Positions 631 to 60,831 of a stretch of 64,000 nucleotides of DNA are shown in pieces. The notes beneath the pieces were generated by a model. The model was not told the DNA's origin and searched no databases. It saw only the letters and a program-made list of their open reading frames with translations. Numbering within the stretch: position 1 is the first letter of the stretch; each line of letters begins with the position of its first letter. The stretch lies in the IMG/VR virus record IMGVR_UViG_3300021375_000010; one strand, given 5' to 3'. Both the position numbers and the translations under genes were made by a program. The DNA is from an uncultured virus (IMG/VR IMGVR_UViG_3300021375_000010). Lineage: Duplodnaviria; Heunggongvirae; Uroviricota; Caudoviricetes.

Positions 631-1128
631 ATGTTAAATGTAGGTGATAAAATCCCTCAAGTGAATCTTCCGATTCAAGTCGATGGTGAATTCAGAACTT
701 TGGATACACTTAAACAACTAGAGGGCAAAAGAGTAATTCTTTTTGCATTGCCGGGCGCATTTACTCCAACATGTTCTAACCAACAACTGCCAGGATTTGA
801 TTCCATGTTTGAACAGTTTGATGAGAAGGGCATTGAAGAGATTTATTGTTTGTCTGTTAACGACACTTTTGTTATGAACAGTTGGTTCGAAGCACAAGAC
901 GTACAGAGAGTTTATCCACTGCCTGATGGTAATGGTGAATTCACACAAGCAATGGGTGCCTCAGTGGAAAAAGGAAACGTAGGATTCGGTATCAGAAGTT
1001 GGAGATACGCCATGGTTGTAAACGATGGTGTTATTGAACAAATGTTTACCGAAGAAGGTCAAGATGATAACATCAACAACGACCCTTACGAAATATCAAC
1101 TCCCGAGAACGTATTAGAGAATCTTTAA
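631..1128 (+). CDS. Peroxiredoxin (Prx5-like)
   Basis: FALPGAFTPTCS active site, SVNDTFVM, RSWRYAMVV. Confidence 0.93.
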   Translation: MLNVGDKIPQVNLPIQVDGEFRTLDTLKQLEGKRVILFALPGAFTPTCSNQQLPGFDSMFEQFDEKGIEEIYCLSVNDTFVMNSWFEAQDVQRVYPLPDGNGEFTQAMGASVEKGNVGFGIRSWRYAMVVNDGVIEQMFTEEGQDDNINNDPYEISTPENVLENL

Positions 1129-1129
1129 T

Positions 1130-2242
1130 ATGGAACTGAGCAGGGAAGATACCATATGGGTAGCGAGCAAGCTCGTTAACTATTTTGCAGACTTCGGTAG
1201 AATTGACGATTATTTTCGTGCAAGGAAAATCGAACGAGTAAAGGACTTACCTGCTCCGTTGTTCGGATTCGGTCTTGAGGATGACATGTTTCAAAACTAT
1301 GACATGCATCCTCGGGACATGAATTTTGAGGTTACAACAATACCAAATGAAACATTTGATGCGATGTTAGAAAAGACTGCATCATTCTCGCCTGATGAAT
1401 CGCCAGGCAAAACTATGAAACTCGTAGTTAAAGAGACCAATACGAACACTGTAGTGGGATTCATAAGATATGGTTCACCACTAATCAATTCAAAACCAAG
1501 AAACGATTACCTTGGTTCTACACCCGACTTAGATATATTCAACAAACGTGCAATCATGGGATTCAACATTGTCCCTATACAACCATTTGGATATAATTAT
1601 CTTGGTGGTAAACTTCTTGCCGCTATCTGTTGTTCACACGAAACACGTAGAATGTTGAACGCTAAATATAACACAGAGTTCTGTTTATTTGAAACAACAT
1701 CTTTATATGGTAACATCAAAGGTGCAAGTATGTACGATGGTATGAGACCATTCTTAAGATACAAGGGCGACACACAGAGTAAGTTTCTACTTACACTAGG
1801 TGAAGAACTATACTTTGAACTAAGAGATTGGTTCACTGATAGAAACGATGGAGAAGACTTGATACACAAAGGTGCTTCATCTCGTAAACTAAAAATGCAG
1901 ACCAAGATGGTTAGTCTAGTAAAACAGAATTTAAAGAAACATGACTCCATAGGATATGAACACTTCTGTAAAGCAATTGAAAATGCAAGTGGTGTAACTA
2001 CACAGAAAAGATTCTACATGTCAGAATGGGGATACACTAATACAAAAGATGTGTTGCTTGGTAAGACTGATAAACTAATCAAAGCAGAAAACTTTGATAG
2101 ATTTGAGATGGATGGTATCCTCGCATGGTGGACAAAACATGCTAGTAAAAGATTTGATAATGTTATCAAACAAGGAAGAAAACGCACAGAGTTAGAAGTG
2201 TGGAATCAAAACACTATGAACAAAATAGATATTATAAGATGA
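1130..2242 (+). CDS. DUF4338/DruA-like protein, possibly Mom-like GNAT fold
   Basis: VGFIRYGSP, PFGYNYLGGKLLA and ETTSLYG motifs recalled from DUF4338 proteins; family assignment from memory. Confidence 0.55.
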   Translation: MELSREDTIWVASKLVNYFADFGRIDDYFRARKIERVKDLPAPLFGFGLEDDMFQNYDMHPRDMNFEVTTIPNETFDAMLEKTASFSPDESPGKTMKLVVKETNTNTVVGFIRYGSPLINSKPRNDYLGSTPDLDIFNKRAIMGFNIVPIQPFGYNYLGGKLLAAICCSHETRRMLNAKYNTEFCLFETTSLYGNIKGASMYDGMRPFLRYKGDTQSKFLLTLGEELYFELRDWFTDRNDGEDLIHKGASSRKLKMQTKMVSLVKQNLKKHDSIGYEHFCKAIENASGVTTQKRFYMSEWGYTNTKDVLLGKTDKLIKAENFDRFEMDGILAWWTKHASKRFDNVIKQGRKRTELEVWNQNTMNKIDIIR

Positions 2243-2631
2243 GAATAGGATTCACATGTGGTGCATTTGACCTTCTTCATGCTGGTCATATTGTAATGTT
2301 AAAGGAAGCATCTGAGAACTGTGACCACTTAATTGTGGGATTACAAACAGACCCTTCAATCGACAGACAAGAAAAGAATCAACCATGTCAATCAGTATAT
2401 GAAAGGTATATACAACTAAGAGCAGTCAAATACGTAGATGAAATTCTACCATATGACACCGAACAGAGTCTGTTAGACTTGATGCAGTCTACAGAGATTC
2501 ATTTGAGGTTCGTAGGAGAAGACTACATAGGTGGAGATTTCACTGGAAAAGGAATGCATGAAATATATTATACAGATAGACAACATTCATTTTCCACAAC
2601 CAATTTAAGGAACAAAGCGGGACTAGTATAA
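2239..2631 (+). CDS. Cytidylyltransferase (TagD/glycerol-3-phosphate CT-like)
   Basis: GAFDLLHAGH (HxGH), VGLQTDPS, RQHSFSTT; ATGA overlap with upstream stop gives start 2239. Confidence 0.9.
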   Translation: MRIGFTCGAFDLLHAGHIVMLKEASENCDHLIVGLQTDPSIDRQEKNQPCQSVYERYIQLRAVKYVDEILPYDTEQSLLDLMQSTEIHLRFVGEDYIGGDFTGKGMHEIYYTDRQHSFSTTNLRNKAGLV

Positions 2632-2698: not shown

Positions 2699-4027
2699 AT
2701 GCTAGATAATTTTTATACAGAAAAGACATATCAAAAGACAATTAGGATATTAGTTTATCCTAATATCACATGGCAGAAGAATTTAGAACAAGATTCTTAT
2801 GTACAAGTGTTAAAGAATATGATTCGTGAAACACAAAACGAACCGTTCTACTGGCATATCATATCACCAACCCATATCGATGGATTGACATTCGATAATA
2901 CGGAACAGTATTTACTACCAGTTCCTACATATCCACCAGTAATGAGAGCACACTTTGATGTGGAATCAGTGAGGAGACTAGTGGGTCATGATAAAGATTT
3001 TGATATCATCATGTCACACTTGCCAGAACATACTCACCAGTTAGTAAATACAATTTACAACATGACACACCACACACCAAAGGTTATTGGTTACTCACAT
3101 TGGTTTGACTTTGACCATATCGTTGCATGGCACAAAGGTACATTCAATCAGAATGCTACTGGTCTATTAGAGTACGATAGATGTTATATCAATACACAAT
3201 GTCAGAAAGATATGGTATTGAATCAAGCAAGAGATACGTTCAATGAGAATACTGTATCTAAACTAGACAACATTCTAAAAGTTCAACACTTGGGTGTACA
3301 CTTAGATGATATTGTTAGTGTGAATAACACCCCAACAAGAACTATAGTATTCAATCATAGATGCGAAAAGTACAAACACTTTGATGAGTTTATTGCTTTG
3401 ATGGATGCATTGTGGGAACAGAGGCAAGACTTTAGTGTTTGGGCACCATTGTTTGATGGTAGTTTCAGTAAACCATATCTATCAAATGAAAAGTTTGATA
3501 AGAAAGGATATTACAAAAAACTAAATGAGTGTTACATGGGATTTGCACCTAAACAAAAGTATGGTGGTTGGAGTGTTGCTGCTACAGATGGAATGATGAA
3601 TGGATGTCCATACATATTCTATGAGGGTGACTACTATCACGAATTACAGGATAACGCTGACTTCTTTACTACAGATGAGGAATCGCTCAAACTAATCAAT
3701 GAGTATCTAGACGATATCGATTTAAGAAATGATAAAGCAACTCAAGCACAAGATTGGTTGAGAACGCATCTACTATACAGTGCAGAGATGGATAAGATGT
3801 GTGATGAAATTAAATCACTTCTATCAAAAGCAGTATGTTCACCTAAAGTAGATGAACTTGTGGAGTATGTAAAGGAACATAAATCAGTAACTAAGAAAGA
3901 ATTATTTGATACTATGGGATGGGGAAGAGGAATTAAATGGACACCTTACAGACGTGCCTTGATGACACACCCAAACATATATGACACTACCAGTAGTGAA
4001 TCCACATACAATTGGAGAGAGGAATGA
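2699..4027 (+). CDS. Glycosyltransferase (GT-B, GT4-like)
   Basis: IVFNHR...K, YGGWSVAATDGMMNGCP resembles the GT-B C-terminal sugar-nucleotide motif. Confidence 0.65.
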   Translation: MLDNFYTEKTYQKTIRILVYPNITWQKNLEQDSYVQVLKNMIRETQNEPFYWHIISPTHIDGLTFDNTEQYLLPVPTYPPVMRAHFDVESVRRLVGHDKDFDIIMSHLPEHTHQLVNTIYNMTHHTPKVIGYSHWFDFDHIVAWHKGTFNQNATGLLEYDRCYINTQCQKDMVLNQARDTFNENTVSKLDNILKVQHLGVHLDDIVSVNNTPTRTIVFNHRCEKYKHFDEFIALMDALWEQRQDFSVWAPLFDGSFSKPYLSNEKFDKKGYYKKLNECYMGFAPKQKYGGWSVAATDGMMNGCPYIFYEGDYYHELQDNADFFTTDEESLKLINEYLDDIDLRNDKATQAQDWLRTHLLYSAEMDKMCDEIKSLLSKAVCSPKVDELVEYVKEHKSVTKKELFDTMGWGRGIKWTPYRRALMTHPNIYDTTSSESTYNWREE

Positions 4028-4341
4028 GTCAACCATTATTTGACAATGATGTTTATTGTGTAGTAGACAATGAAAAGGCAGAATTAGCAGGTATCAAAAT
4101 TCTACATGGAGAATATGAAGGGACGATATATTCGTATGGTAAGGTTGAATTTGAAGATGGCAAACCTAACATAAATTTCGAAAGAACATTTCACGTAGTC
4201 CCCGAAGGTAAAACTTTAGATGAACTAAATACCAACGAAGAATTAAATAAATTGATAGGTGATATCCTTGTGGAACTCATCTCTCATCAAATATCAAAGG
4301 AAGAAAATAATGAACAAAGAAGTATTGAAGGAGCAGATTAA
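4024..4341 (+). CDS. Hypothetical protein (conserved T4-like type)
   Basis: ORF overlapping upstream stop (ATGA), GAGG RBS; IKIL.G.Y.G.IYSYGKV pattern. Confidence 0.6.
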   Translation: MSQPLFDNDVYCVVDNEKAELAGIKILHGEYEGTIYSYGKVEFEDGKPNINFERTFHVVPEGKTLDELNTNEELNKLIGDILVELISHQISKEENNEQRSIEGAD

Positions 4342-4768
4342 GAGACACGAAGGAGAAGTCCTTGAAGTGTACGCTGATTCACTAGGATATTTAACACTAG
4401 GTGTTGGACATCTAATTAAAGAAGGTGATGCAGAACATGGACAACCTGCTGGAACTCCAGTGAGTCAAGAAACTGTTGATGCATACTATGAAGCAGACTT
4501 TGACAAACACGTAGAAGAAACTATCCATGTGTTTGAGTCAAAAGGTGGAGAAGATTTCTATGCACTACCCGAAGACATTCAACACGTTCTAGTTAACATG
4601 ACATTCAACTTAGGTGGAACAAGATTCGGTAAGTTCAATAACATGTGGAAAGGTGTTGTTGCTTGTGACTGGGAAAAGGTTGCAGTCGAAATGGAAGACT
4701 CTAGATGGTTCGGACAAGTTGGAAGAAGGTCAGTAGAACTCCAACAAATGGTTCGAAACTGTGACTAA
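4310..4768 (+). CDS. Phage lysozyme (T4 e/gp5-like, GH24)
   Basis: HEG..LEVYADSLGYLTLGVGHL catalytic motif, NMTFNLG, MEDSRWFGQVGRR. Confidence 0.9.
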   Translation: MNKEVLKEQIKRHEGEVLEVYADSLGYLTLGVGHLIKEGDAEHGQPAGTPVSQETVDAYYEADFDKHVEETIHVFESKGGEDFYALPEDIQHVLVNMTFNLGGTRFGKFNNMWKGVVACDWEKVAVEMEDSRWFGQVGRRSVELQQMVRNCD

Positions 4769-5042
4769 AGAAATCCTTGCAGTAAAATTAATCGGTGGTG
4801 AAGTTGTCATTGGATATGTCACTAAGAACCGATGGAAAAAGGAAATAGTTATACAAGAGGCACAAGAGTGTCTCATTACGTATGCTGAAGGTAGAGCAGA
4901 GGTAGAACTCGCACCTTGGAATCCATATGCTATGGACTATACGTTTAAGGTACCATTTCATGCTGTAGTTACTACATTCAAAGTGAGACCAAATTTAGAA
5001 ATTAACTACAAGAAAAGTACAGGTAATATTAAGGAAAAATAA
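4761..5042 (+). CDS. Hypothetical protein (Sm-like beta fold)
   Basis: VKLIGGEVVIG...LAPW pattern common in T4-like phages; GTG start. Confidence 0.55.
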   Translation: MTKEILAVKLIGGEVVIGYVTKNRWKKEIVIQEAQECLITYAEGRAEVELAPWNPYAMDYTFKVPFHAVVTTFKVRPNLEINYKKSTGNIKEK

Positions 5043-5263
5043 TGACAGATTTATTAAGAGCATTAGAAAAGAAACTAGAGGGTGATGTTGCAGTTCACAC
5101 TGCAAATGCTATGGTATACCAATCAAACCCAACAGGGATTGGTGAACACCCCGATATCGTTCAAGCATTAGAAATGGAAGTTGAAAAACTTGCTGATGCA
5201 CAGGACAAACTCAAATCGGTAAAAGAACTTCTACACCCATCTAAAAAGACCCTTGTAGAATAG
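5042..5263 (+). CDS. Hypothetical protein
   Basis: Coupled ORF with NPTGIGEHPDI motif. Confidence 0.65.
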   Translation: MTDLLRALEKKLEGDVAVHTANAMVYQSNPTGIGEHPDIVQALEMEVEKLADAQDKLKSVKELLHPSKKTLVE

Positions 5264-5281
5264 ACATCTTTCTGTTATAAT
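5253..5281 (+). promoter_or_regulatory. Sigma70-type promoter for gp43 (leaderless)
   Basis: TTGTAG-17-TATAAT, ATG 6 nt after the -10 box, no SD. Confidence 0.55.
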
Positions 5282-5287
5282 AACCAC

Positions 5288-7795
5288 ATGGATTATTATA
5301 CAAACGTATGTCGTACACGTGACAAGATTCTCGTTCGAGGATATCAAGGTAACAAACAAGTCAAGCACAAGATTGACTACAGACCCAAACACTACATTCC
5401 ATCTAAGAAAGGCGAGACACCGTTTCGTTCACTAGATGACAGACCACTTGAAGTTGTAGAACTCAACTCAATGGGTGGTGCAAGAAAGTTCCGTGAGAAA
5501 TATGATGGGACTGCTGGATTTGAAATCCATGGATATGACAGATATATCTACACATATATCGCAGAGAAATTCCATGGAGACATAGAGTTCAATTCAAAGA
5601 ACATCAAAGCAGCGGTACTTGATATTGAGTGTGAGTGTGAAGACGGATTCCCCGAACCAAGATATGCCCAAGAAAAGATAAACGCAATTACAATCAAACC
5701 GATTGGTAAACCAGCACATGTATTTGGAATAGGTGACTGGAATCACGGTAAAGATTATGTGTATTATCCTTGTAGAGATGAAGCACATCTCATGACTGAG
5801 TTCATGAAGTATTGGAGAACAGAAAACTTTGATATTATCACAGGTTGGAATGTAAACTCATTCGATATTACATATATTTGTAACAGAATTGATAGACTCT
5901 TCGGCGAAGGAGAACACAAGAAGTTATCTCCATGGGGTATGAGTGATGTGAGAGAGTTCACCACCATGGGTTATCAAAAACAAATGATTTTTACACTCTA
6001 TGGTGTTAATGTTCTTGACTATCTCGAACTATATCGTAAACACACATTCGTCAATCAAGCATCATACAAACTAGACCATATTGCTGAGGTAGAACTAGGT
6101 AAGAAGAAACTAGACTATTCAGAACATGGGTCATTACATACACTATACAAACAGGACTATCCAAAGTTCTTGGAGTATAATGTGATGGACGTTCTTCTCG
6201 TTGAAGAACTAGATGACAAACTTGGATTCATCGAACTTACAGAGACGATGGCATACAATGCTAAGTGCAATTATGCAGATGTATTTGGTATGGTTAAGTA
6301 TTGGGAAACAATCATATACAACTTCTTAAAAGAACAGAAGATACAAACACCACCACAACAATTGAGAAGAAATGGTGACAAAATCAAGCCGATCGCTGGT
6401 GCATATGTAAAAGAACCACAGGTTGGTGGTCACAATTGGGTCATGTCTTTTGATTTAAATTCACTATATCCTCACTTGATTATGCAGTTTAACATTTCAC
6501 CCGAAAAGATGGTGAATGGTATGAGACAGGATGTTAACGTAGATAAAATGTTAAACAAAGAGTGTAACCTAAATGAAGTGTATAAATTAGGACACACTGT
6601 TACGCCAAACGGAGTAATGTTCAAGAGAGATAAACAAGGATTCCTTCCCGAACTTATGGAAAAGTTCTATGATGAACGTAAGGCATGGAAGAAGAAGATG
6701 ATTGGATATCAGAAAGAACTTGAAACTGTTTCTGATAATGTACAACGTAAAGAATTAGAAACAAAAATCAAACATGCATACAACAATCAACAGGTCAGAA
6801 AGATTGCACTCAACTCTGCTTATGGTGCTCTTGCTAATCAATACTTTGCATTCTTTTCTATCGACCTCGCAGAGGCGATTACTATGTCGGGTCAGTTGGC
6901 CATCAAATGGGCAGAGAAAACCATCAACGATTATCTAAACGAAGTTTTAAAGACTAAAAAAGATTATGTTATCGCAATGGATACAGACTCGGTCTATATC
7001 ACAATGGATGCATTGGTACAACAAGTACTACCCGATGCATCTAAAGAAGAGGTTGTTGATTTTTTATGTAAAGCTGAAGTTCAACTAGAGAATATCCTAG
7101 AAAAGGGATTCATTGACTTTGCAAAATACACGAATGCATTCCAACAGAAGATGGAGATGGGACGTGAGGCGATTGCAGACAGAGGTATATGGACTGCTAA
7201 GAAACGCTACATACTTAACGTTCATGACATGGAAGGTGTGCGGTTTGCTAAACCTAAACTTAAACTCATGGGTATTGAGACTGCAAAGTCCAGTACACCA
7301 CAATGGGTAAGAACCCGTCTTGAAGAGGCGATTAAGATTGTCATGCAAGGTGATGAGGAACAATTATGGGATTACGTAGAAACTGCACGTAAGGAATTCA
7401 GAGAGTTACCACCCGAGAAAGTATCATTCCCTAGAGGTTGCAACAACCTTGCTCAATATAGTAACATGAACACTGTTTACACTAAGGGAACACCAATACA
7501 TGTCCGTGGTGCTTTACTATTCAATCACCACCTAAAGAATAAGAATTTAGATAGACGCTACGAGACAATCAAGGAAGGTGACAAGATTCTTTTCTCATAT
7601 CTTACACTACCAAATGTGTTTAATGAGAATGTGATATCTTATGTTGGTACACTTCCAAAAGAGTTTGACTTACACAGGTTCATAGACTATGACATGCAGT
7701 TCAACAAATCATTCTTAGAACCTCTAAGAAATATTGCAGAACGTATCGGATGGCATACAGAACCTGTTGCATCTTTGGATAGTTTCTTTTCATGA
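5288..7795 (+). CDS. 43: Family B DNA polymerase (gp43)
   Basis: DIE exonuclease, SFDLNSLYPH, KIALNSAYG, DTDS, KKRY motifs; uninterrupted. Confidence 0.98.
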   Translation: MDYYTNVCRTRDKILVRGYQGNKQVKHKIDYRPKHYIPSKKGETPFRSLDDRPLEVVELNSMGGARKFREKYDGTAGFEIHGYDRYIYTYIAEKFHGDIEFNSKNIKAAVLDIECECEDGFPEPRYAQEKINAITIKPIGKPAHVFGIGDWNHGKDYVYYPCRDEAHLMTEFMKYWRTENFDIITGWNVNSFDITYICNRIDRLFGEGEHKKLSPWGMSDVREFTTMGYQKQMIFTLYGVNVLDYLELYRKHTFVNQASYKLDHIAEVELGKKKLDYSEHGSLHTLYKQDYPKFLEYNVMDVLLVEELDDKLGFIELTETMAYNAKCNYADVFGMVKYWETIIYNFLKEQKIQTPPQQLRRNGDKIKPIAGAYVKEPQVGGHNWVMSFDLNSLYPHLIMQFNISPEKMVNGMRQDVNVDKMLNKECNLNEVYKLGHTVTPNGVMFKRDKQGFLPELMEKFYDERKAWKKKMIGYQKELETVSDNVQRKELETKIKHAYNNQQVRKIALNSAYGALANQYFAFFSIDLAEAITMSGQLAIKWAEKTINDYLNEVLKTKKDYVIAMDTDSVYITMDALVQQVLPDASKEEVVDFLCKAEVQLENILEKGFIDFAKYTNAFQQKMEMGREAIADRGIWTAKKRYILNVHDMEGVRFAKPKLKLMGIETAKSSTPQWVRTRLEEAIKIVMQGDEEQLWDYVETARKEFRELPPEKVSFPRGCNNLAQYSNMNTVYTKGTPIHVRGALLFNHHLKNKNLDRRYETIKEGDKILFSYLTLPNVFNENVISYVGTLPKEFDLHRFIDYDMQFNKSFLEPLRNIAERIGWHTEPVASLDSFFS

Positions 7796-8469
7796 AAACC
7801 CATATCATAACAATAATGGACTTGTACGAGAGTGTGGAGTCTGCTATTACGTGTGCAAACACATGTGCATTACATGGTGTCACTGCACAACTCTTTCCTG
7901 CTACAACGCCAGACGATGACCCACATGAAATTATTGAAACAATACTTGGAAGAAAGATAAGCACAAATGTTTTACAAATGGAACCAAGACCCGAAAGAGT
8001 ATTATCATGTCTTGCATCTCAAATGAGATTGTGGAATTCGTGTGTTGAAGTCGATGAAGATTTTCTAATACTAGAACACGATGCAAGAATGATTACACCC
8101 TTGCCTGATATAGAAGTAGATGGGGTTATCAGTCTTGGTAAACCATCTTGGAACAAAGAATTGGCAGACAGTCTAGAGTGGGAAGATGGACTGAACGTCA
8201 TGACAAATACGAACAGACCATTTCTTGGTAACCATGCAATCATGATGAGTCCTACAGGTGCAAAACAAATACTAGATAAAATGAGAAACCCCGAATTTAG
8301 ATGGTTGCGCCCAGCAGATATGATGATGACACCTGCTATGATGGGAGAAGGATTGTTGAAAGAGTATTATCCATTTCCATTCGATGTACAGGAGACATTT
8401 ACAACTGTACAGAGTGGTAAAAGTATTGGTGTTAAAAATTATGTGCCAGTAGATTATAAGGTATTATGA
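7792..8469 (+). CDS. Glycosyltransferase family 25-like
   Basis: FPATTP, SCLASQMRLW, LILEHDA motif. Confidence 0.75.
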   Translation: MKTHIITIMDLYESVESAITCANTCALHGVTAQLFPATTPDDDPHEIIETILGRKISTNVLQMEPRPERVLSCLASQMRLWNSCVEVDEDFLILEHDARMITPLPDIEVDGVISLGKPSWNKELADSLEWEDGLNVMTNTNRPFLGNHAIMMSPTGAKQILDKMRNPEFRWLRPADMMMTPAMMGEGLLKEYYPFPFDVQETFTTVQSGKSIGVKNYVPVDYKVL

Positions 8470-9209: not shown

Positions 9210-9211
9210 AT

Positions 9212-49622: not shown

Positions 49623-49629
49623 TTTTATT

Positions 49630-51809: not shown

Positions 51810-53105
51810 ATGGCAGAACAAAATCAACCCCCATCACAGTTTGCTCAAGAGCAGGCCCCCGAAGTTTTAACTGAAACTCAACAAATACAAAAAAGAGTCC
51901 AAGACTTTAAGGTACAACTCGCTCCGAAGTCAGCACAAGCAGTTAGTGGTATTCTAGAAACTGGTCTAGCGAAAGGACAATACACTTTACAAGACTTAGA
52001 CATGTTAGTTGTAATTCGTGAAGAACTTACAAAAGGTATTATTGATTTTAATACAACTGTTCAGATTGCTGAGGCAAGACTTAAAGAAATTCAACAAGAA
52101 GAATACTTGCAGAGTGCTAACAAAGAAAATGAAATTAATCTTCTGCATCAGCAAGCACTTGCAGATGAGAGAGTTGCAAGGAAGAAGGCAGAAGAGGAAC
52201 TCAGAGTTCTCAAAGACATTTACGAGAGTCGTGTTAAGAACACCGCACCTGCTCCAGTTGAAGTAAAAGGCAATGCACCTAGTGTAACAGGTGAACCACT
52301 TGCAGAACGTCAACCAGTAGAACCACCAAAACCAACGGGTAAAACTTCACCAGCATTTGCAGCTGCTCGTGCATTGAATCCTGTAACTGCAACACAATCA
52401 CAGATTGATGAGTTCAGACCAAGTGGTACAACTACAGAAGAATTTATTGAGGAAGTTGAAAGAGTTAATGAAGTTGCTATCGCAGAGGAACTACTCACAG
52501 ACGAACCAATCTCAGAAGATAAAGAGTTTGTAGAAAAAGTTGAAGAGACTAAGAAGTCCTTTGCAGAGTGGACAGAGGAAACAGTAACTGAAGAAGACTT
52601 TACTGAAGAAGAACAACTAGAGATAGACTTCGCAATTCAAGATGATATTGACGAAGAAGAGTTTAACAATTCATTTGTTGACCCAGTGACTGCTGGAAAT
52701 GCTCCAAACATAAAAGCACAAATGCCCGATACACAACAAGTGACTGCACCATTAGATGCAAAACAGTTTGACACCGAAGAAGAGTTACTCGCAGATATGC
52801 AAGAACGTATTGACGAGGCAACTGAAGAAGCAGAAGAAGAGTACGATGAAATTGTTATTCCTAGTTCAGACGAACTGAACAGAATGACAAAGGCAAAGAT
52901 TGTCGAAGTTGCTGATGTATTGAATGATAAATTTAATGCTGGATTTAATGTGACTACAGAAGACACTAAGGCAAAGATGATTCTTGATTTCCAAGAACAG
53001 ACTGATGCCTTAATTGCAAAATTGCAAGATACTGGCGAGTTCGTAAGTGCAGACAATGAGGGTGAAAATGATTCCACAGATGTCAGAGACGGTGGCTACT
53101 TCTAG
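51810..53105 (+). CDS. Large acidic coiled-coil protein
   Basis: Glu-rich 431 aa; ACTAAATA box at 51685. Confidence 0.75.
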   Translation: MAEQNQPPSQFAQEQAPEVLTETQQIQKRVQDFKVQLAPKSAQAVSGILETGLAKGQYTLQDLDMLVVIREELTKGIIDFNTTVQIAEARLKEIQQEEYLQSANKENEINLLHQQALADERVARKKAEEELRVLKDIYESRVKNTAPAPVEVKGNAPSVTGEPLAERQPVEPPKPTGKTSPAFAAARALNPVTATQSQIDEFRPSGTTTEEFIEEVERVNEVAIAEELLTDEPISEDKEFVEKVEETKKSFAEWTEETVTEEDFTEEEQLEIDFAIQDDIDEEEFNNSFVDPVTAGNAPNIKAQMPDTQQVTAPLDAKQFDTEEELLADMQERIDEATEEAEEEYDEIVIPSSDELNRMTKAKIVEVADVLNDKFNAGFNVTTEDTKAKMILDFQEQTDALIAKLQDTGEFVSADNEGENDSTDVRDGGYF

Positions 53106-53529
53106 AGACTCAGTAGTCTTACCTGTAGCGATCGGCCAAATAAGTAATCAATATGTAGAACACTTTGAGAATATCAAAGATGATGTTTTACGTTTTAATT
53201 TACCCACAGAATACACAGTTAAACTAGGAACGAGATACGATATAGATGGTCTGTACTTATACACTAAGGACGATGTTATGCTTATCTCATCACTAGACTT
53301 AGGTCTAGGACAAGGAACAGATAATATAAGACTCGGCACCTTCTTAGCAAAGTCAAAAGGTAATCCGACATCTTGTATACTTTCAATACATGAGGACGAC
53401 CAGTGGTTAGCAGTTCCTAAACACTTTAGTCCATTCCAAGAAGGAGAGGAAATAAATTATGAGTACATTGAACAATATGAAGAAGATGGTGAATGGGTGG
53501 AACGACACCTTAGAATCACAAGGAAATAA
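53080..53529 (+). CDS. Hypothetical protein
   Basis: ORF fills gap; start uncertain. Confidence 0.6.
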   Translation: MSETVATSRDSVVLPVAIGQISNQYVEHFENIKDDVLRFNLPTEYTVKLGTRYDIDGLYLYTKDDVMLISSLDLGLGQGTDNIRLGTFLAKSKGNPTSCILSIHEDDQWLAVPKHFSPFQEGEEINYEYIEQYEEDGEWVERHLRITRK

Positions 53530-53532
53530 TAA

Positions 53533-54465
53533 GTGTCCGAAAATAGAAACATCCCAATTACAGCAGTTGACCAATATGATTTTCTCGAACATCGTAGAGG
53601 ACAAGAACAGAAACACTGGCAGAGAAAGAAAGGCACTCTAACAGAACTTGACTCTATTCTTACTGTAGAGATTAACACCACAGAACTCTGTAACAGAACA
53701 TGTGTGTTTTGCCCAAGACATGACCCTAAAGTATTCCCCAATAGAAACTTACACTTAACCATTAAAGGTGCAACCACGATTGCAGAAGAACTTGCCGACA
53801 ATGGATTTAACGGTAAGATATCCTTTAGTGGATTTGGTGAGAACTTACTTAACCCCGACTTCATAGAAATCGTAAGAGTGTTTAGGTTTAACTTACCTTA
53901 TGCAACACTAGAGTGTAACACTAACGGCGACAAACTAGATTCAGATTATGTCACAGGTTTGTACAAGAGTGGATTGGATTTGCTCTACATCAATCTGTAT
54001 GATGGTATTCATCAAATGGAAGGTTTTGATTACATGATGGCAGAAGCAAGAGTGCATGAAGACCAATACAGATACAGAATGCATTGGGGTGACTTTGAGA
54101 AACACGGACTGATACTAAACAACCGTAGTGGTGTAGTTGATTGGGTTGGTATCGAAGATGATAGTGTAGAGAATCTAAAAGGTAAACCATGTCACTACCC
54201 TTTCTATAAAATGTTTGTAGACTGGAATGGTGATGTGTTGTTCTGCTCTAACGATTGGGGTAGAGAACATGTCGTAGGTAATCTATTGACCATGTCCTTA
54301 CATGAAGTGTGGTTTAGTAAACCGATGACAAAGATTCGTAAGAGATTAATGAAAGGGAACAGAGAGATGTCCCCTTGTAACAAGTGTAGTGTCGATGGGA
54401 GTTTATTTGGTAAACAATCATTTGACCTAGTAAAGGAATATTATGAAAATCCTAATAACAGGTAG
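53533..54465 (+). CDS. Radical SAM protein with SPASM/twitch domain
   Basis: CNRTCVFC, GFGENLL, NTNG; C...GDVLFC..D...C.KC. Confidence 0.92.
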   Translation: MSENRNIPITAVDQYDFLEHRRGQEQKHWQRKKGTLTELDSILTVEINTTELCNRTCVFCPRHDPKVFPNRNLHLTIKGATTIAEELADNGFNGKISFSGFGENLLNPDFIEIVRVFRFNLPYATLECNTNGDKLDSDYVTGLYKSGLDLLYINLYDGIHQMEGFDYMMAEARVHEDQYRYRMHWGDFEKHGLILNNRSGVVDWVGIEDDSVENLKGKPCHYPFYKMFVDWNGDVLFCSNDWGREHVVGNLLTMSLHEVWFSKPMTKIRKRLMKGNREMSPCNKCSVDGSLFGKQSFDLVKEYYENPNNR

Positions 54466-55015
54466 TACAGGTTTAGCAAGAAACATTAGTGACACTTTTA
54501 CTTCTACACCATTTGCTGGTGGGATGAATATCGTTAACGAAGCACGTATTGAAGATTTGATGCTTTGGGAAGATTGGGAATGGCAGGAATACGATGTGTT
54601 TATCAACAATGCTTTCGGCGCTCCATTTGACCAGTGTGACTTGCTGGAAAAATCTTTCAATGCATATCGACATGATATGAAAAAGATTATCATCAACATA
54701 TCTTCACGTGCCTCACAACCAAACATATCCAAAGGTTACAAGTATGCAGCTGCAAAAGCGGCACTCAACCACATGTCTAACAATTACACATACAATTCAG
54801 ATAAGAAGTGTAAGATTACTACTATGAATTTAGGTTTAATCAATCATGAATTGCCTTCATTATCATATCAGTCAATCTCCAATGCTATTTGGTACCTTGC
54901 AACGTCATATCCCGATATTGAGATTCCCGAAGTGACTATGCAAGCACATGCAAACTATAACGAAGTGCAAAGTGATAAAGAAACTCTCAGAGACATGGAA
55001 AGATTCACTAAATAG
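54443..55015 (+). CDS. Short-chain dehydrogenase/reductase
   Basis: ITGSTG, INNA, NISS, YAAAK. Confidence 0.85.
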   Translation: MKILITGSTGLARNISDTFTSTPFAGGMNIVNEARIEDLMLWEDWEWQEYDVFINNAFGAPFDQCDLLEKSFNAYRHDMKKIIINISSRASQPNISKGYKYAAAKAALNHMSNNYTYNSDKKCKITTMNLGLINHELPSLSYQSISNAIWYLATSYPDIEIPEVTMQAHANYNEVQSDKETLRDMERFTK

Positions 55016-55019
55016 TACT

Positions 55020-55268
55020 ATGAGTATAGAATATAACGATTTTGGGTTCACTGCTATTGATGCAGATGAACTCGCATCCATCGATACAAAGATTGTTGAG
55101 AAAACAGTCGCATCCGCAACCGCCATTGCTAAGATGGACGATTTCATTCGTCCTCTTTTGGAGAATCTTATGAAAGATTCCGATAAAGACTACATCTACT
55201 GGCCCAATCGAGTTGAAATTCTTCGTAAGAAGTTAGACGAACTCGATGAAATTCAAAAAAGTTCTTAA
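55020..55268 (+). CDS. Conserved T4-like late hypothetical protein
   Basis: DFGFTA, PLLENL, YIYWPNR; ACTAAATA 5 nt upstream. Confidence 0.75.
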   Translation: MSIEYNDFGFTAIDADELASIDTKIVEKTVASATAIAKMDDFIRPLLENLMKDSDKDYIYWPNRVEILRKKLDELDEIQKSS

Positions 55269-55275
55269 AAACCCC

Positions 55276-55305
55276 TTTACATTGCCCCTCGCTTTTAAGT
55301 AGAAT
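55276..55305 (+). promoter_or_regulatory. Early-type promoter
   Basis: TTTACA-TTGCCCCTCGCTTTTAAG-TAGAAT. Confidence 0.65.
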
Positions 55306-55352
55306 ACACTAGTTAGATAAATTAACTGTGTATTTACCAAAAGGAGAAAAAA

Positions 55353-55616
55353 ATGATACAAAGTCAACACGAACTATCCCCACATGAACGAGCGTACACC
55401 GATTTAGGTCGCAAAATTATTCAAGAGTGTGAAAATAATACTATTTTCCCAAAGGATGATGAAGAGTCCCTAACATTGTGGAACTCTGCTGTGACAGCTG
55501 CAAACAAATTCATGTCTTTTGGTACAACATGGTCAAAATTTAATGGAATTGATGACTTAAGTAAAAATGAAAGACTTGCAGTCAAGAAATATCTTAATGG
55601 AACAGCATGCGATTAG
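55353..55616 (+). CDS. Hypothetical protein
   Basis: AGGAG RBS. Confidence 0.7.
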   Translation: MIQSQHELSPHERAYTDLGRKIIQECENNTIFPKDDEESLTLWNSAVTAANKFMSFGTTWSKFNGIDDLSKNERLAVKKYLNGTACD

Positions 55617-55786
55617 TAGTTGCAAGTTATGGTGATGTTGTAATCACCCAAGACCGTCTAAATGGTTACAAGCGATACATTGTTGACTGGCAGAACGGTA
55701 GTAAACAATTGTTTAGTGGGTTATATTACACATTAGATGATGTTAAGGAAAGAACAGAGAAGAGGATATCTTCTTTACCGATTTAA
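55607..55786 (+). CDS. Hypothetical protein (59 aa)
   Basis: Hand-translated MRLVVASYGD... Confidence 0.5.
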   Translation: MRLVVASYGDVVITQDRLNGYKRYIVDWQNGSKQLFSGLYYTLDDVKERTEKRISSLPI

Positions 55787-55902
55787 ATAGGGGTGCTTGA
55801 CACTCGGGTAGGGACAGGGTCAATAAAAACAAAATCTACAACTTATTATACGATGTTTGTTTGAGACCCATCCCGCCAGAATTTTTTTATTAGGAGTATA
55901 TT

Positions 55903-56208
55903 ATGGGCATGACAAGCCATTACGCTGGTTCACTTCGATACAGTATGAACGGCAAAAAACGAAAGACAAAATCTATGCGAACTCGCACAAAGAGGATGTC
56001 AGATTTTAATTGGGATACCCCACTCGTGGAACCCAAACCAGTTCGAGAGACTAAGGAATATCCTTCCGCTCCACTTGGTCTTCCGAAAACAAACGTAGAC
56101 GATTCATGGAAGGTAGAAGAGTCTAAAAACTTCACAATCGCACCCGCTTATAATAAAGGTGCTTATCAAGTCATCCCACGTGATGACGTTAAACATATAG
56201 GAAAATAA
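55903..56208 (+). CDS. Conserved T4-like hypothetical protein
   Basis: APAYNKGAYQVI; AGGAG RBS. Confidence 0.75.
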   Translation: MGMTSHYAGSLRYSMNGKKRKTKSMRTRTKRMSDFNWDTPLVEPKPVRETKEYPSAPLGLPKTNVDDSWKVEESKNFTIAPAYNKGAYQVIPRDDVKHIGK

Positions 56209-56211
56209 ACT

Positions 56212-56427
56212 ATGGAAAATTTAAACTTAATTAATTTTATGTTCTCAATCTTGGCACTATTTGCCTTTGGATTCGTACTGGTGGGCGCTTGGTTGCTCGT
56301 AGATGATTCATCTAAGATGTTCAATTTGCGAAAAGATTTGAAACGTAAATATCCCGATATGACTAAGGGTCAACTTCAAGCTCTGGCACGTCACCAGTAT
56401 GCTCAGTCCTTACAGGACAAAAAATAA
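56212..56427 (+). CDS. Small membrane-anchored protein
   Basis: N-terminal TM. Confidence 0.6.
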   Translation: MENLNLINFMFSILALFAFGFVLVGAWLLVDDSSKMFNLRKDLKRKYPDMTKGQLQALARHQYAQSLQDKK

Positions 56428-56429
56428 AT

Positions 56430-56459
56430 TTGACAAAGCCCCTCACTTTTTTATATACT
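56430..56459 (+). promoter_or_regulatory. Early promoter (repeat copy 1)
   Basis: TTGACA-AAGCCCCTCACTTTTTTA-TATACT. Confidence 0.8.
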
Positions 56460-56488
56460 ATACACATAGATTGAAAAAGGAGATACAA

Positions 56489-56860
56489 ATGAACGAGTTA
56501 GAAAAAAGAAATGTTGCGGAAACCAAAGCTATTGAACTAGTAGAACTAGTTGAGACTTTATGTGCAGATATTACTACTGCAATACACGAGAAGTGGGAAC
56601 ACACTCGTGGTGTAAAAACCCACGACTTTTCAATTGGAAAGAAATACATTCGTGTTTATTCAGTAGAGGATGGTCAACCTCGTTCAGTATGGGGGTTCAT
56701 CAATGTGGGCAACGATAAGTTCCAAGTTGGTGATGTGTTAAAAGCATCGGGTTGGAATCAACCCGCTCTTAATTCTGCCAGAGGTAACTTGTACGATGGG
56801 TATGAAATAGCAAAAGGATATTCTACTCACAGAATATTTGGGCCAGATTACTTAATTTGA
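56489..56860 (+). CDS. Conserved early hypothetical protein
   Basis: GKKYIRV, SVWGFI, GDVLKASGW..PA...RGN; AGGAG RBS. Confidence 0.75.
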   Translation: MNELEKRNVAETKAIELVELVETLCADITTAIHEKWEHTRGVKTHDFSIGKKYIRVYSVEDGQPRSVWGFINVGNDKFQVGDVLKASGWNQPALNSARGNLYDGYEIAKGYSTHRIFGPDYLI

Positions 56861-56886
56861 CAAAGCCCCTCACTTTTTGTTACACT
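56857..56886 (+). promoter_or_regulatory. Early promoter (repeat copy 2)
   Basis: TTGACA-AAGCCCCTCACTTTTTGT-TACACT. Confidence 0.75.
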
Positions 56887-56918
56887 ATGTGTATAATATA
56901 AATTTAGGAGAAAATATT

Positions 56919-57368
56919 ATGGGAATCAAACATAAACAAATTTTAGACGGTACTGCAAGATGGTACGTAGTTACTACTCAAAATGTTGAGGAGTACGGTG
57001 TGAACTTTCACAAGTTCAAGGGCGGTTCCGAGTACGTGATTGGTTTCCATGTTGAGAAGTGTATCTTCGAGGAGAACGCATATGGTGAGGGCGAACACTC
57101 ATATTATGAGGCGCCGTCTCTTACTGAGGCGTCAGTTGCTGCTCTCGTGATGAAACACGTGAACAGGTACAACGGATTGAACGGTTCGTTTGATTACATC
57201 ACTAACATTGAAGTGATTGATTCGCCTTTCAACACACCCGACCACCCAACGTGGGGTGGTGATGCGGAAACTCTCATTGAAGAGTTAGATGCAATTCACG
57301 ATAGTAAGGTTGCTAACGGAGAACTTGATGCTCCGTTTATGGAAGAAATTTATTCGGAGGCTGTATAA
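56919..57368 (+). CDS. Early hypothetical protein
   Basis: AGGAG RBS; TQ..E.YG...KFKGG.EY. Confidence 0.7.
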   Translation: MGIKHKQILDGTARWYVVTTQNVEEYGVNFHKFKGGSEYVIGFHVEKCIFEENAYGEGEHSYYEAPSLTEASVAALVMKHVNRYNGLNGSFDYITNIEVIDSPFNTPDHPTWGGDAETLIEELDAIHDSKVANGELDAPFMEEIYSEAV

Positions 57369-57721
57369 TGTATAGTATTAAAGAATTTGAAGTCCTTACA
57401 CTTGAAGAGAGTGTAGGTGGTACATCACTAAAGGGAAGCATCATAACCGATTACAACACTTTGTGTAATGTACTTGGTAAACCAACCTTCACAGATGCCG
57501 ACCCTAATGAGAAAGTTTCTTGTGAGTGGTGTCTCAAAGTTAAGTACTGGGAAGAAGGTGCTCATGCGGACGATTGGGAATACGCTGATGTTACAGTGTA
57601 TGCATGGAAGTATGGTTACATTCCAGTTGAAGAATGCATATGGAATGTTGGCGGTAACTCTTGGGAAGCTACTGATTTGATTGAAACGATTTTGGCGGAG
57701 GACATTGCTAATGCAGCTTAA
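57368..57721 (+). CDS. Early hypothetical protein
   Basis: GTSLKG...Y..L...GKP...KV..EW...W.VGG. Confidence 0.7.
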   Translation: MYSIKEFEVLTLEESVGGTSLKGSIITDYNTLCNVLGKPTFTDADPNEKVSCEWCLKVKYWEEGAHADDWEYADVTVYAWKYGYIPVEECIWNVGGNSWEATDLIETILAEDIANAA

Positions 57722-57968
57722 GGAATACAAAACTATGGAAGCGGAGTATGCTGGAGGCATTACACTTCAATTCAAGTTTGAGAATGGGTACGGTGCCAGT
57801 GTAGTGAAACATGATTTCAGTTACGGTGGTCAAGATGGTCTTTGGGAAGTCGCAGTACTTGACGAAGATTTACAGATATGTTACCATACACCTATAACAC
57901 AAGATGTTATTGGTTATCAGACGTGGAAACAAGTCGAAAAAATTTGTGAGGAGATACAATCATTATGA
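57711..57968 (+). CDS. Early hypothetical protein
   Basis: FENGYGASVV...SYGG..GLWEVAVL. Confidence 0.7.
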   Translation: MQLKEYKTMEAEYAGGITLQFKFENGYGASVVKHDFSYGGQDGLWEVAVLDEDLQICYHTPITQDVIGYQTWKQVEKICEEIQSL

Positions 57969-58162
57969 CATTTACTTTTGAACAAGCAAAACTTATTGCA
58001 TCCAGTACTGGTGGAAAGCTCAGTGCAGATGATGTGATGAATCTTGCAACTTATGGAACAACCAATGCTATGGACATGGCACCCGAAGAGGTGGGCGAAG
58101 GTTGTCCTTGTGGGGTGAAAAATTGCCCCGATGAATACGACCATGTCACACATGGAGTATAG
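57965..58162 (+). CDS. Small hypothetical protein
   Basis: ATGA coupling; CPCG..NC...Y.H...G. Confidence 0.6.
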   Translation: MTFTFEQAKLIASSTGGKLSADDVMNLATYGTTNAMDMAPEEVGEGCPCGVKNCPDEYDHVTHGV

Positions 58163-58163
58163 C

Positions 58164-59792
58164 ATGAAATATTTGTTAAGTTTAATATCCCTAACCATAT
58201 TAGTTGGTTGCGGAGGCGGTGGTGGAGCTGCTGGGGTCTTAACCCCTGTAGTCGCTCCTTCTGGCATAACCTATTACACAGGTTTTACCACAACCACTTT
58301 AGATGATGTCACTAACCAGTTTGTGGTTATTGATGGATACATCGAAGGTGCTAATGTGTTCCTTGATTGGAATTACAATGGTATTCAAGATACAGGTGAG
58401 GCATCAGCAAGTTGGATGGGTGTAGACCCTGTTGTTACTATTTGCACCAGTTACGATTCCCAAGGATGTATTGAGACTGGAACATATGACCCGCCAGATA
58501 ATTATTACTACTTTCTAACAAGGGAGTCTGAAGAATATGCACCAAGTGATTTCAATGGACAGTTTCTAGATGACAATATATCAGATTATTCATCCTACTG
58601 TAAATCATTAAGACCAGTGATGTCTGTGGTACCCGAAGGTGCTTATGATTCTGATAGGGGATATGTAGACACTGCATACGAAATGATGGCGATGCCAAGT
58701 GTATTGGAGAGGGACATTACTAACGGAACTAACATCACTCCATTCACAACATTAATCAATCCCCTCTTTTCATCTTTGATGGTAACAGATTATCCAATTG
58801 ATGAATCATGTAGCACAGGTGCTATATCTCAAGGCGAGAACATCGTCCAATCAATAGAACAGTACATCAATACATTTTTAGAAATGTACAATATCAGTTT
58901 AGATTTCTTCTATGAGGACTTCTTTAAATCCGAGGACGTTGCAAAACAACAATTAGCGATGGACATTGTTGACATCATATCAACAGTAACAACTGCTAAG
59001 GATATTTTAGAGGATACTGTTAACTTACCTTATAGGTATGTCTTTAGTGAAGGAGTCATGTCAGATGTTATGAGTGGCAATTTCACCACACTAGATTTTG
59101 ATATAAATCATAAAATAGAAGAGTCACAAGTGTTCAACGATTTAGTGACTTACTCAGAAAGTTTGTATAGTGGCATTACAACAGACAAAGATGGTAACCT
59201 ATATTCATATGAGGGAGACATCATCCCCATGTCATTTGGTAATATCTCTGTATCTGCTTCTAGTGTAGAAACATCCACAGTCCATCAAGCAACAAATATT
59301 ATGGGAATGGATGACGTACATCTTTATTCTACAGTTGCAAGTGGTTATGATAATGGTATCCTATCAGATACTAGTTTTACTAGAGTGCAATTCTCCAAAC
59401 CAAACTATTATAGGTCAATGCAAACCAATCAAAGAGGTAAACTTTTTTGGGTCACACATGACTATAGATTTTCTATTGCCTTTGGGCCTGGCAACCCTAT
59501 GGCCAACTTCAATACGAATTCTGTAGTTAACAATGGTGACTTGAATACCGCTCAAGATATTTTAAATTCCATCAATAGTGTATCACATTATATAGAAGAT
59601 GCTCAGAATACCATCTCATATTTGTACGCTGGTGATGAATTGCAGTATGCAAAAACAATTGACGGAATAGAATACACATATTCATACACCGTTGGTGGTG
59701 ACGAATTCTGTTTGACATATGACACTAGTACACAATCAGAATCATTCAATAGAACTAATCCTTATGTACAGTGTTCGGAGTTAATACAATGA
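58164..59792 (+). CDS. Large lipoprotein
   Basis: Lipobox LVGC-GGGGG; VIDGYIEGANVFLDWNYNG..D.GE; NITPFTT. Confidence 0.75.
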   Translation: MKYLLSLISLTILVGCGGGGGAAGVLTPVVAPSGITYYTGFTTTTLDDVTNQFVVIDGYIEGANVFLDWNYNGIQDTGEASASWMGVDPVVTICTSYDSQGCIETGTYDPPDNYYYFLTRESEEYAPSDFNGQFLDDNISDYSSYCKSLRPVMSVVPEGAYDSDRGYVDTAYEMMAMPSVLERDITNGTNITPFTTLINPLFSSLMVTDYPIDESCSTGAISQGENIVQSIEQYINTFLEMYNISLDFFYEDFFKSEDVAKQQLAMDIVDIISTVTTAKDILEDTVNLPYRYVFSEGVMSDVMSGNFTTLDFDINHKIEESQVFNDLVTYSESLYSGITTDKDGNLYSYEGDIIPMSFGNISVSASSVETSTVHQATNIMGMDDVHLYSTVASGYDNGILSDTSFTRVQFSKPNYYRSMQTNQRGKLFWVTHDYRFSIAFGPGNPMANFNTNSVVNNGDLNTAQDILNSINSVSHYIEDAQNTISYLYAGDELQYAKTIDGIEYTYSYTVGGDEFCLTYDTSTQSESFNRTNPYVQCSELIQ

Positions 59793-60292
59793 AAATGAGA
59801 CACTTAAGTTTTTTATCAGGCGCCTTGTTAGGTTTCCTGTGTGGTGTTATGACAATGAAGGTTGAGGCGTCAGACCCCAACGGAGAAATCTATTGCATGG
59901 CACAGAACATTTATTTTGAGGCAGGTAATCAACCACTCGCTGGTAAGATTGCTGTATCGCAAGTAGTGTTAAACAGGGTTGAACATTATGCTTATCCCGA
60001 TACTGTTTGTGGTGTGGTATACCAAGCAAAGTTGAGAACAAATTGGAAAGGTGAAATGGTTCCTAAAATCAACGCTTGTCAATTCAGTTGGTATTGTGAT
60101 GGTAAGTCAGACAACCCAGTAGACAGTGTAACTTGGTTATCCTCTATGCACATTGCAAGAGATGTGATACAATCTAAGTATGGTGACATTACAGAAGGTG
60201 CAACACATTATCATGCAACTTGGACATTACCATATTGGGCAGACTCATTGAACGAGACTGTGGTTATTAACGAACACATATTTTACAAATAA
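59789..60292 (+). CDS. Cell wall hydrolase (SleB/Hydrolase_2)
   Basis: CMAQNIYFEA, VVLNRV, CQFSWYCDG, GATHYHA, HIFY. Confidence 0.92.
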   Translation: MKMRHLSFLSGALLGFLCGVMTMKVEASDPNGEIYCMAQNIYFEAGNQPLAGKIAVSQVVLNRVEHYAYPDTVCGVVYQAKLRTNWKGEMVPKINACQFSWYCDGKSDNPVDSVTWLSSMHIARDVIQSKYGDITEGATHYHATWTLPYWADSLNETVVINEHIFYK

Positions 60293-60294
60293 TT

Positions 60295-60831
60295 ATGAAT
60301 TTATTTTACTTAGACAAAGACCCCGAAATCTCTGCAACACTACATTGTGATAAACATGTAGTAAAGATGATTATCGAGTACGCTCAGATGCTATCTACCG
60401 CACATAGAATGCTAGACGGTACTCAGTATACCGATGCATCTAGTGGACGTAGAATCCAAAGATGGGCGCTGAATGATACAAACATGGAAGATGTGTTATA
60501 TAAAGCATCCCATATCAATCACCCCTCTACTAGGTGGGTTCGTGAGAATGCAATTCAGTATCAGTATGCATATGATATGTTTACTGCACTGTGTGACGAA
60601 TACACTCACAGATATAAAAAGATTCATGCAACTGATTTTAAACTTAGAGTATTACTTAATCAGTTACCAAACAAGATTGCACTAGGTGAATGGTCAGAAC
60701 CGCCTCAGTGTATGCCAGACGATGTGAAGATGGAATCGACTCTCGATGCATACCATAAATACTATGCAGTCTACAAGAAGGAATTCGCAAAGTGGACAGA
60801 ACGTGACGTACCAACTTTTATGAGTTTATAA
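60295..60831 (+). CDS. denV: Pyrimidine-dimer DNA glycosylase-like (DenV family)
   Basis: MNLFYLD, HCDKHVVKM..E.AQML, H.NHP, PPQCMP. Confidence 0.75.
   Translation: MNLFYLDKDPEISATLHCDKHVVKMIIEYAQMLSTAHRMLDGTQYTDASSGRRIQRWALNDTNMEDVLYKASHINHPSTRWVRENAIQYQYAYDMFTALCDEYTHRYKKIHATDFKLRVLLNQLPNKIALGEWSEPPQCMPDDVKMESTLDAYHKYYAVYKKEFAKWTERDVPTFMSL

Follow-up and report, generated by a model that had tools for sequence, protein, structure and literature searches.

CC-initial restriction-type words persist almost only after G in an uncultured T4-like phage: a possible footprint of GCC/GGC-directed DNA modification

Phage pairs of a cytosine-5 methyltransferase (C5-MTase) and a TET (5mYOX) enzyme have mainly GpC[C/T] specificity (Burke et al. 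2021, PMC8256090). Hypermodification clusters built on such pairs are described there, and in a follow-up preprint (10.1101/2023.12.21.572611), as acting post-replicatively and sequence-specifically; the preprint doubts that marks so sparse give a genome broad protection. In phage CAjan, DpdA modification falls on the G of GA and GGC and makes overlapping sites resistant to restriction enzymes (Kot et al. 2020, PMC7544227). Chlorella-virus methylases of short motifs such as M.CviPI (GpC), cited in PMC8256090, are viral enzymes of 2-3 bp specificity that protect overlapping sites. Restriction-site avoidance in virulent phages was surveyed by Rusinov et al. (2018, PMC6286503), in whose text sites are handled as whole words and the terms 'flank' and 'overlap' do not occur. 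The present analysis concerns a 64,000-nt stretch of DNA from an uncultured ocean virus of the Caudoviricetes (IMG/VR record IMGVR_UViG_3300021375_000010), referred to below as the window, in which one flanking base decides whether restriction-type words beginning with CC survive. The two C5-MTase/TET papers give no genome footprint, and no earlier description of flank-conditional avoidance was found in the open-access literature.

The words CCGG, CCWGG and CCAGA occur at 47 sites in the window, and 45 of these have a G directly 5' of CC, or a C directly 3' of GG (Table 1). Using a null of 200 synonymous-codon shuffles made inside genes, about 127 unflanked sites were expected where 2 were seen. 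HCCAGA, the form without the 5' G, occurred once (expected 79.3 ± 6.9, minimum 55), unflanked CCWGG once (22.4 expected) and unflanked CCGG not at all (25.7 expected), while GCCAGA was found 20 times (13.5 ± 2.7 expected). Given a baseline probability of 0.106 for G before CC, the binomial probability of 20 flanked sites among 21 CCAGA/TCTGG is 7e-19. A second IMG/VR record (G001), 99.98% identical to window positions 15636-64000, supplied 72,327 further downstream bases as an independent sample of the same genome; all CCGG (5/5), CCAGG (27/27), CCTGG (19/19) and TCTGG (3/3) sites in it were flanked, as were 18 of 20 CCAGA sites. Over 136 kb, counted on both strands against an order-2 Markov model, HCCAGA stood at 3 observed for 257 expected and GCCAGA at 41 for 32.5. 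Each non-G flank was purged alike (observed/expected: ACCAGA 0/111, TCCAGA 1/72, CCCAGA 2/47). Depletion and rescue were all-or-none under both nulls. In a 50-kb control from cyanophage S-SM2, 63 of 78 CCWGG sites were unflanked, and there were 121 HCCAGA as against 19 GCCAGA.

The initial annotation, made by eye, had stated that these words are tolerated almost only next to GpC. That observation holds in the window, in the additional bases and after Markov correction, and the codon shuffle excludes chance, codon usage, codon bias and coding constraint as its cause. Its examples of CCGG are flanked sites, save that no CCGG stands at 27738; the real sites lie at 27799 and 27817. It was right that both exceptions in the window have a GC one base away, each having the form GCC-C.... 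Across 696 kb of the clade only four CCWGG sites are unflanked, all of them GCCCWGG and including the one at 28128, and three of the eight unflanked CCAGA sites read GCCCAGA, including the one at 45017. A GC one base further off thus gives rescue in part.

The purge operates through synonymous codons, as in known restriction-site avoidance. Proline before Glu or Asp is written CCC 79 times, CCA 13 times and CCT 9 times, although CCA is the commonest proline codon overall (340 vs 134 CCC), a bias already pointed out in the initial annotation. Twelve of the 13 CCA-GAN pairs follow a codon with final G, and, of 16 plus-strand GCCAGA sites, 12 take their rescuing G from the third position of the codon upstream. 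Pro-Gly pairs cannot escape both CCWGG and CCGG and are therefore forced to CCW-GGC in 12 of 17 cases, though GGC accounts for 100 of 1186 glycine codons; four of the five pairs written otherwise are preceded by G.

The purged words of this phage are GATC, GGWCC, CGCG, CGWCG, GTGCAC, TGCGCA, CCGG, CCWGG and CCAGA, all of them short restriction-type words depleted beyond codon usage and composition (codon shuffle: GATC 4 vs 178, GGWCC 0 vs 25.7, CGCG 0 vs 21.8 expected). When all flank bases were scanned against all 4- and 5-letter cores, rescue was found solely for G before CC-cores, plus two further cases accounted for by overlapping purged 6-mers. Four of the seven CC-cores are rescued by G in this phage, the remaining three having 4-9 expected sites. 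G before CG-cores gave no rescue in any set compared (GCGCG 0 observed for 17.5 expected; GCGWCG 0-1 for 7), and words bearing GpC are themselves purged (observed/expected: CGCG 0/56, GTGCAC 0/34, TGCGCA 0/17, GCATGC 2/24, AGCT 129/370). Rescue is thus tied to GCC (GGC on the opposite strand) and not to GpC at large. The effect is absent at GCG, and the genome has no purged words beginning with CT or CA. The base upstream of the rescuing G shows no preference, being distributed as at GCC sites generally, which rules out GGCC, RGCY or another longer protector motif.

These counts also set aside the view of the initial annotation that GpC cytosines are marked in general, since modification of every GpC is ruled out by the purged GpC-bearing sites and the unrescued CG-cores. 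Its related statement that GpC palindromes are not avoided stands for TGCA, which is enriched (874/550), and for GGCC, which is only mildly low (80/122), and fails for CGCG, GTGCAC, TGCGCA, GCATGC and AGCT. Full GpC methylation of the M.CviPI type would likewise shield CGCG, GTGCAC, TGCGCA and RGCY, all purged here. The enrichment of TGCA is 1.85-fold in this phage and 2.4-fold in phage Melnitz. GATC is subject to a second flank-conditional rescue with a different rule, a 6-bp site: the next 72 kb hold two more GATC, one in CGATCG and one in GGATCC, so that CGATCG accounts for 5 of 6 in 136 kb.

Relatives of the family B DNA polymerase of this phage number 549 in IMG/VR, and the best 80 loci were analysed. 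These were divided by HCCAGA density into 53 A-type (654 kb) and 27 N-type loci (314 kb), a split that is one of definition. Independently of that definition, the A-type loci are also without GGWCC and unflanked CCWGG. In each A-type sub-group GCCAGA is close to expectation (5/12 to 22/20) and HCCAGA is reduced to 0-2 for 55-292 expected. GATC avoidance varies independently of the split, and which words are avoided changes from one related phage to another, again as in known restriction-site avoidance. In the N-type loci none of four depleted CC-cores is rescued by G (CCCAG: 33/151 after H, 2/28.8 after G). In the polymerase tree, with branch support not taken into account, N-type loci fall into at least three groups interleaved with A-type loci.

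The same rule was found in 47 uncultured relatives and in the cultured OM43 phage Melnitz (MZ577097, 141.5 kb), whose 68 CCWGG and 15 CCGG include none unflanked and whose genome holds zero GGWCC, GTGCAC and TGCGCA. All eight CC-cores are rescued there by G, among them CCTCC (observed/expected 3/61 without G vs 13/8.8 with it), CCTGA (6/154 vs 25/22), CCCGT (1/42 vs 15/6) and CCGAG. In 80 Melnitz-like contigs (663 kb) four of four cores are rescued and 4 of 166 CCWGG are unflanked, three of these four being GCCCAGG. G-flanked CCWGG has the same density, 0.48 per kb, in this phage and in Melnitz. CCAGA is avoided here and not in Melnitz, whereas the two phages alike purge CCWGG and CCGG, which points to several purging agents under one shared flank rule. 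In the whole genome of Pelagibacter phage HTVC008M (NC_020484) it is GATC that is tolerated after G (HGATC 55/710 vs GGATC 111/100); GANTC-type words are likewise tolerated after G (GACTC 0/83 vs 15/12), and RGCY is tolerated after C. The genes that the present phage has in common with Melnitz and not with HTVC008M include no plausible DNA-modifying enzyme.

A variable slot lies beside the polymerase gene. Modification-type cassettes adjoin this gene in 43 of the 53 A-type loci and in none of the 27 N-type loci; nine of the ten cassette-less A-type loci have less than 2.5 kb of sequence upstream of it. The alternative cassettes are listed in Table 1. In Melnitz a C5-MTase (gene 5, 187 bits) and the next gene, annotated as hypothetical and matching Tet_JBP (L094:5208-6194; 43 bits for a cut-off of 34.9), stand directly 3' of the polymerase gene and are followed by a 427-aa unknown protein and a P-loop kinase. 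The MT-TET pair recurs in the 80 Melnitz-like contigs and in nine A-type relatives, with C5-MTase (PF00145) matched in loci L037, L041, L053 and L065-68. The remark in the initial annotation that phage C5-MTase/TET pairs with GpC specificity are known was thus well placed, and their reported GpC[C/T] specificity (PMC8256090) is compatible with the rescue context found here, GCC but not GCG. In four other A-type loci the cassette holds a protein with the fold of a tRNA-guanine transglycosylase (TGT). The 430-aa protein of L059, located beside FolE, QueC and QueE, folds as a TGT (AlphaFold2 (AF2), predicted local distance difference test score (pLDDT) 89.8), and all 50 listed Foldseek matches are TGTs. 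Upstream of the polymerase gene, L059 (4241-7983) and L079 (5406-8344) carry this protein with preQ0 genes, and L074 carries a 508-aa N6_N4_Mtase-like protein, at the place taken by a glycosyltransferase gene in the present phage. The DpdA system is likewise motif-limited, and its GGC, as given in PMC7544227, is the complement of GCC; the likeness in these relatives is one of gene content, and the CAjan specificity may not be theirs.

The cassette of this phage is of another type, a 442-aa GT-B glycosyltransferase gene upstream of the polymerase gene and a pair of GT25-like genes after it. The GT-B family was found in A-type relatives only, and the GT25-like pair in 16 of 47 A-type loci examined and none of the 27 N-type loci, never together with MT-TET. 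The model of the GT-B protein (AF2 pLDDT 86) had GT4 enzymes as top Foldseek matches, and T4 alpha-glucosyltransferase (1xv5) was also matched. A hidden C5-MTase within this gene was rejected (hhalign probability 0.1%), and homology of its family to the Melnitz 427-aa protein or to the TGT-fold protein of the relatives was found in neither case. A further record (G002, 96-97% identical) bridges the far end of the G001 extension and the window start, giving a closed circle of about 154 kb. Six-frame hidden Markov model searches, Pfam on all open reading frames and tblastn with the Melnitz enzyme gave no C5-MTase in G001, G002 or the window. TET/JBP (PF12851) had no match in G001 or G002, by tblastn likewise, and PF01555, TGT-fold, DpdA and preQ0 pathway genes were absent from the whole circle. 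The initial annotation was accordingly correct that no C5-MTase is visible in the window, and the C5-MTase and TET/JBP for which it had proposed a search of the remaining genome are not in the circle. Strictness of the flank rule does not differ between cassette classes.

Table 1. Coordinates of sites and genes in the window, and occurrence of cassette types at the polymerase gene of A-type loci
Feature	Position	Strand	Remarks
CCGG	751, 21357, 25933, 27799, 27817, 43000, 45921		7/7 as GCCGG or CCGGC
CCAGG	790, 1403, 15015, 15051, 16622, 16799, 29929, 30031, 38739, 41627, 46262		11/11 flanked
CCTGG	11828, 17055, 28128, 30076, 33604, 35535, 44164, 59487		7/8 flanked; exception 28128
CCAGA/TCTGG	range 3023..60719		17 CCAGA (16 after G) and 4 TCTGG (4 before C); 20/21 flanked
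Sole unflanked CCWGG	28128..28132		opposite strand GCCCAGG
Sole CCAGA without 5' G	45017..45021	+	reads GGCCCAGA; form GCC-C...
GATC	6391, 25045, 53130, 61482		all four in CGATCG; 4 vs 178-248 expected, about 50-fold purge
Family B DNA polymerase (gp43)	5288..7795	+	anchor of variable slot
442-aa GT-B (GT4-like) glycosyltransferase	2699..4027	+	extra C-terminal helical domain; slot upstream of polymerase gene
Two GT25-like glycosyltransferase genes	7792-8469, 8466-9209	+	just after polymerase gene
Candidate modification cluster	41866..47562	+	ParB-like (GmrSD_N)/HNH, MazG-like pyrophosphatase, Methyltransf_24, 2OG-Fe(II) oxygenase, DUF6552, split carbamoyltransferase
MT-TET cassette	9 A-type loci		
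TGT-fold protein cassette	4 A-type loci (L016, L059, L079, L080)		
508-aa protein cassette	8 A-type loci, e.g. L074:7217-8740		weak N6_N4_Mtase match
442-aa GT-B glycosyltransferase cassette	13 A-type loci		type of this phage
GT25-like pair only	9 A-type loci		pair also accompanies some other cassette types

We consider these data best read as site purging combined with a base modification directed to GCC/GGC and made by the phage's own polymerase-side cassette, to which we assign a probability of about 0.4. Under heavy restriction pressure, silent recoding would have stripped the genome of words recognised by many nucleases. The modified base in the GCC/GGC duplex would be either the G-adjacent C or its pairing G, overlapping sites would then not be cut, and CC-initial words would persist at the expected frequency only after G. 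The maker would be the cassette in the variable slot, here the GT-B and the two GT25-like enzymes, which are favoured by their position in the slot and their restriction to A-type phages. Rescue extends alike to words with nothing in common but their initial CC, a pattern better accounted for by one protective mark than by several enzymes that happen to share a flank preference. Such a mark would bring unrelated words under one flank rule, would leave CG-cores and GpC palindromes unspared, and would explain why GC one base off helps slightly and why the cassette-free relatives have no rescue. Two of the slot cassette types match the trinucleotide by their published specificity (C5-MTase GpC[C/T], PMC8256090; DpdA GA and GGC, PMC7544227), and the MT-TET pair very likely makes the mark in Melnitz-type phages. 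The difference from the systems of the C5-MTase/TET papers would be that sparse protection appears here to be completed by recoding every unprotected site. The proposal of the initial annotation, that a modified GpC cytosine blocks host restriction, is thereby retained in one part, the flank pattern fitting a protective mark. The mark would be limited to GCC, C5 chemistry is unsupported by the genes of this phage, and it does not follow for it, since the same rule holds under four different cassettes.

Several points weigh against this reading. In about 154 kb this phage has no gene for a DNA methylase, TET/JBP or TGT-fold protein, with the qualification that 17.7 kb of the circle are represented solely by the 96-97% identical strain G002. 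The best fold matches of the GT-B protein are generic GT4 enzymes, and a glycosyltransferase requires an acceptor such as 5-hydroxymethylcytosine or 5-hydroxymethyluracil, to which there is no evident route in the phage. The identity of the rule under four cassettes means that all four chemistries act at GCC/GGC or that a shared cause lies outside the cassettes. The hosts of A- and N-type phages probably differ, so that host confounds the association of rescue with cassettes. RGCY words are 2-5-fold depleted genome-wide (AGCC 0.18, AGCT 0.27, GGCC 0.46 of zero-order expectation), and AGCC/GGCT is as low as 0.18 although the GCC-containing RGCY words should be protected. Finally, C/T differences per site between the strain and G002 are 0.033 at GCC and 0.037 at GCT, compared with about 0.10 at NCG; hypermutability or decay of the 5-methylcytosine type at GCY was rejected, no raised C/T change being seen between the two strains. 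In this comparison (window 1-17819 and the extension end vs G002) the rate at NCG is 2-3 times that of other contexts (0.03-0.05).

The more specific proposal, that the GT-B and two GT25-like genes form a new context-specific system marking GCC/GGC without methyltransferase, TET or DpdA, and that four unrelated cassettes swap in one slot on the same trinucleotide, is an unlikely one as a whole. The convergence of C5-MTase/TET, DpdA-preQ0, N6/N4-type methylase and glycosyltransferases would, on this proposal, be due to a whole genome recoded to depend on GCC protection.

The main alternative to a phage-made mark, itself rather unlikely, is a mark made by the host. A population-wide host methylase would mark replicating phage DNA, any site overlapping the mark would escape cutting in the host infected next, and the cassettes would serve other ends. 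An identical rule over four cassette types and the lack of a recognisable maker in this phage would then be expected, yet these phages would then have had no need, as far as protection goes, to acquire MT-TET again and again. The retention of GATC in CGATCG resembles protection by a conventional methylase of 6-bp specificity, whereas a 3-bp specificity without preference before G is typical of viral and not of bacterial methylases (PMC8256090). The tail-fibre part shared with Melnitz hints at a similar host; scans of genome contigs with the Melnitz-type methylase matched nothing, no host genome being among the data.

It is improbable that no modification is involved and that the purging nucleases simply fail to cut when G precedes CC, leaving G-flanked sites neutral. 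Variants of this explanation are a CC-reading module shared by the nucleases, or one nuclease with a degenerate site. A half-site defect would yield the one-sided rescue of palindromes, GCC-cores are at about the expected frequency, and no modifying enzyme was found in this phage; the same flank rule would however be needed for at least seven different words, and the unlike treatment of CCAGA in this phage and Melnitz indicates several agents. All three non-G flanks are purged equally, and the N-type relatives purge CC-cores without G rescue, which argues against a general trait of CC-reading nucleases. Least probable is a relic of an ancestral C5-MTase/TET pair lost from the lineage, with G-flanked sites still awaiting purge: the pair is present in Melnitz and nine relatives and the cassettes are clearly mobile, but neither GCCAGA (41/32.5) nor the CCWGG density, equal to that of Melnitz, gives any sign of decay, the MT-TET-free arrangement is common to lineages whose polymerases are only about 75% identical, and those lineages continue to purge unflanked sites in full.

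A second, weaker candidate module for DNA or nucleotide modification is the cluster at 41866-47562. None of its products is recognisable as a DNA methylase or as TET, and only the oxygenase has a Melnitz homologue. Its small S-adenosylmethionine methyltransferase weakly matches part of a PHROG labelled DNA methyltransferase, and its carbamoyltransferase is of the NodU type.

All genes of the window are on the plus strand and, by Pfam, include a T4-like myovirus replication module (family B polymerase, UvsX, gp41, gp59, gp33, RNase H, NrdAB), Hsp20 and many 2OG-Fe(II) oxygenases. The closest cultured polymerases are those of cyanomyophages (47-48% identity). Links to Pelagibacter phage HTVC008M, and closer ones to the OM43 phage Melnitz, come from a small nuclease, a curli gene and part of a tail-fibre gene (73% identical to Melnitz). 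The G001 extension carries structural genes, one of which contains runs of CAACCTGGCAC / CAGCCTGGCAC repeats; their collagen-like Pro-Gly periodicity accounts for many CCTGGC sites. The many 2OG oxygenases and the GT25-like genes could equally modify collagen-like fibres. The 17.7 kb present only in G002 encode gp45/44/62, regA, the curli proteins CsgF and CsgG, NifU and a CHASE2 cyclase; in this gap region CsgF, CsgG, a curlin-repeat protein and the CHASE2 adenylate/guanylate cyclase were located at L089:6572-8664 and 11431-13269. A ribosomal protein S21 gene was found at L004:11169-11402.

If the proposed modification is real, the footprint would provide evolutionary evidence, the first of its kind, for an anti-restriction role of sparse, motif-limited DNA modifications. 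Restriction sites under the mark would be kept by the phage and all others recoded, which would answer the doubt raised in the literature about GpC-specific hypermodification. Phage Melnitz and OM43 strain H5P1, a member of the Methylophilales, provide a cultured pair for a bench test. In some phages, this one included, the footprint is present while known modifying enzymes are missing, and plain sequence would become a readout of the modification specificity of phage DNA, usable on uncultured genomes.

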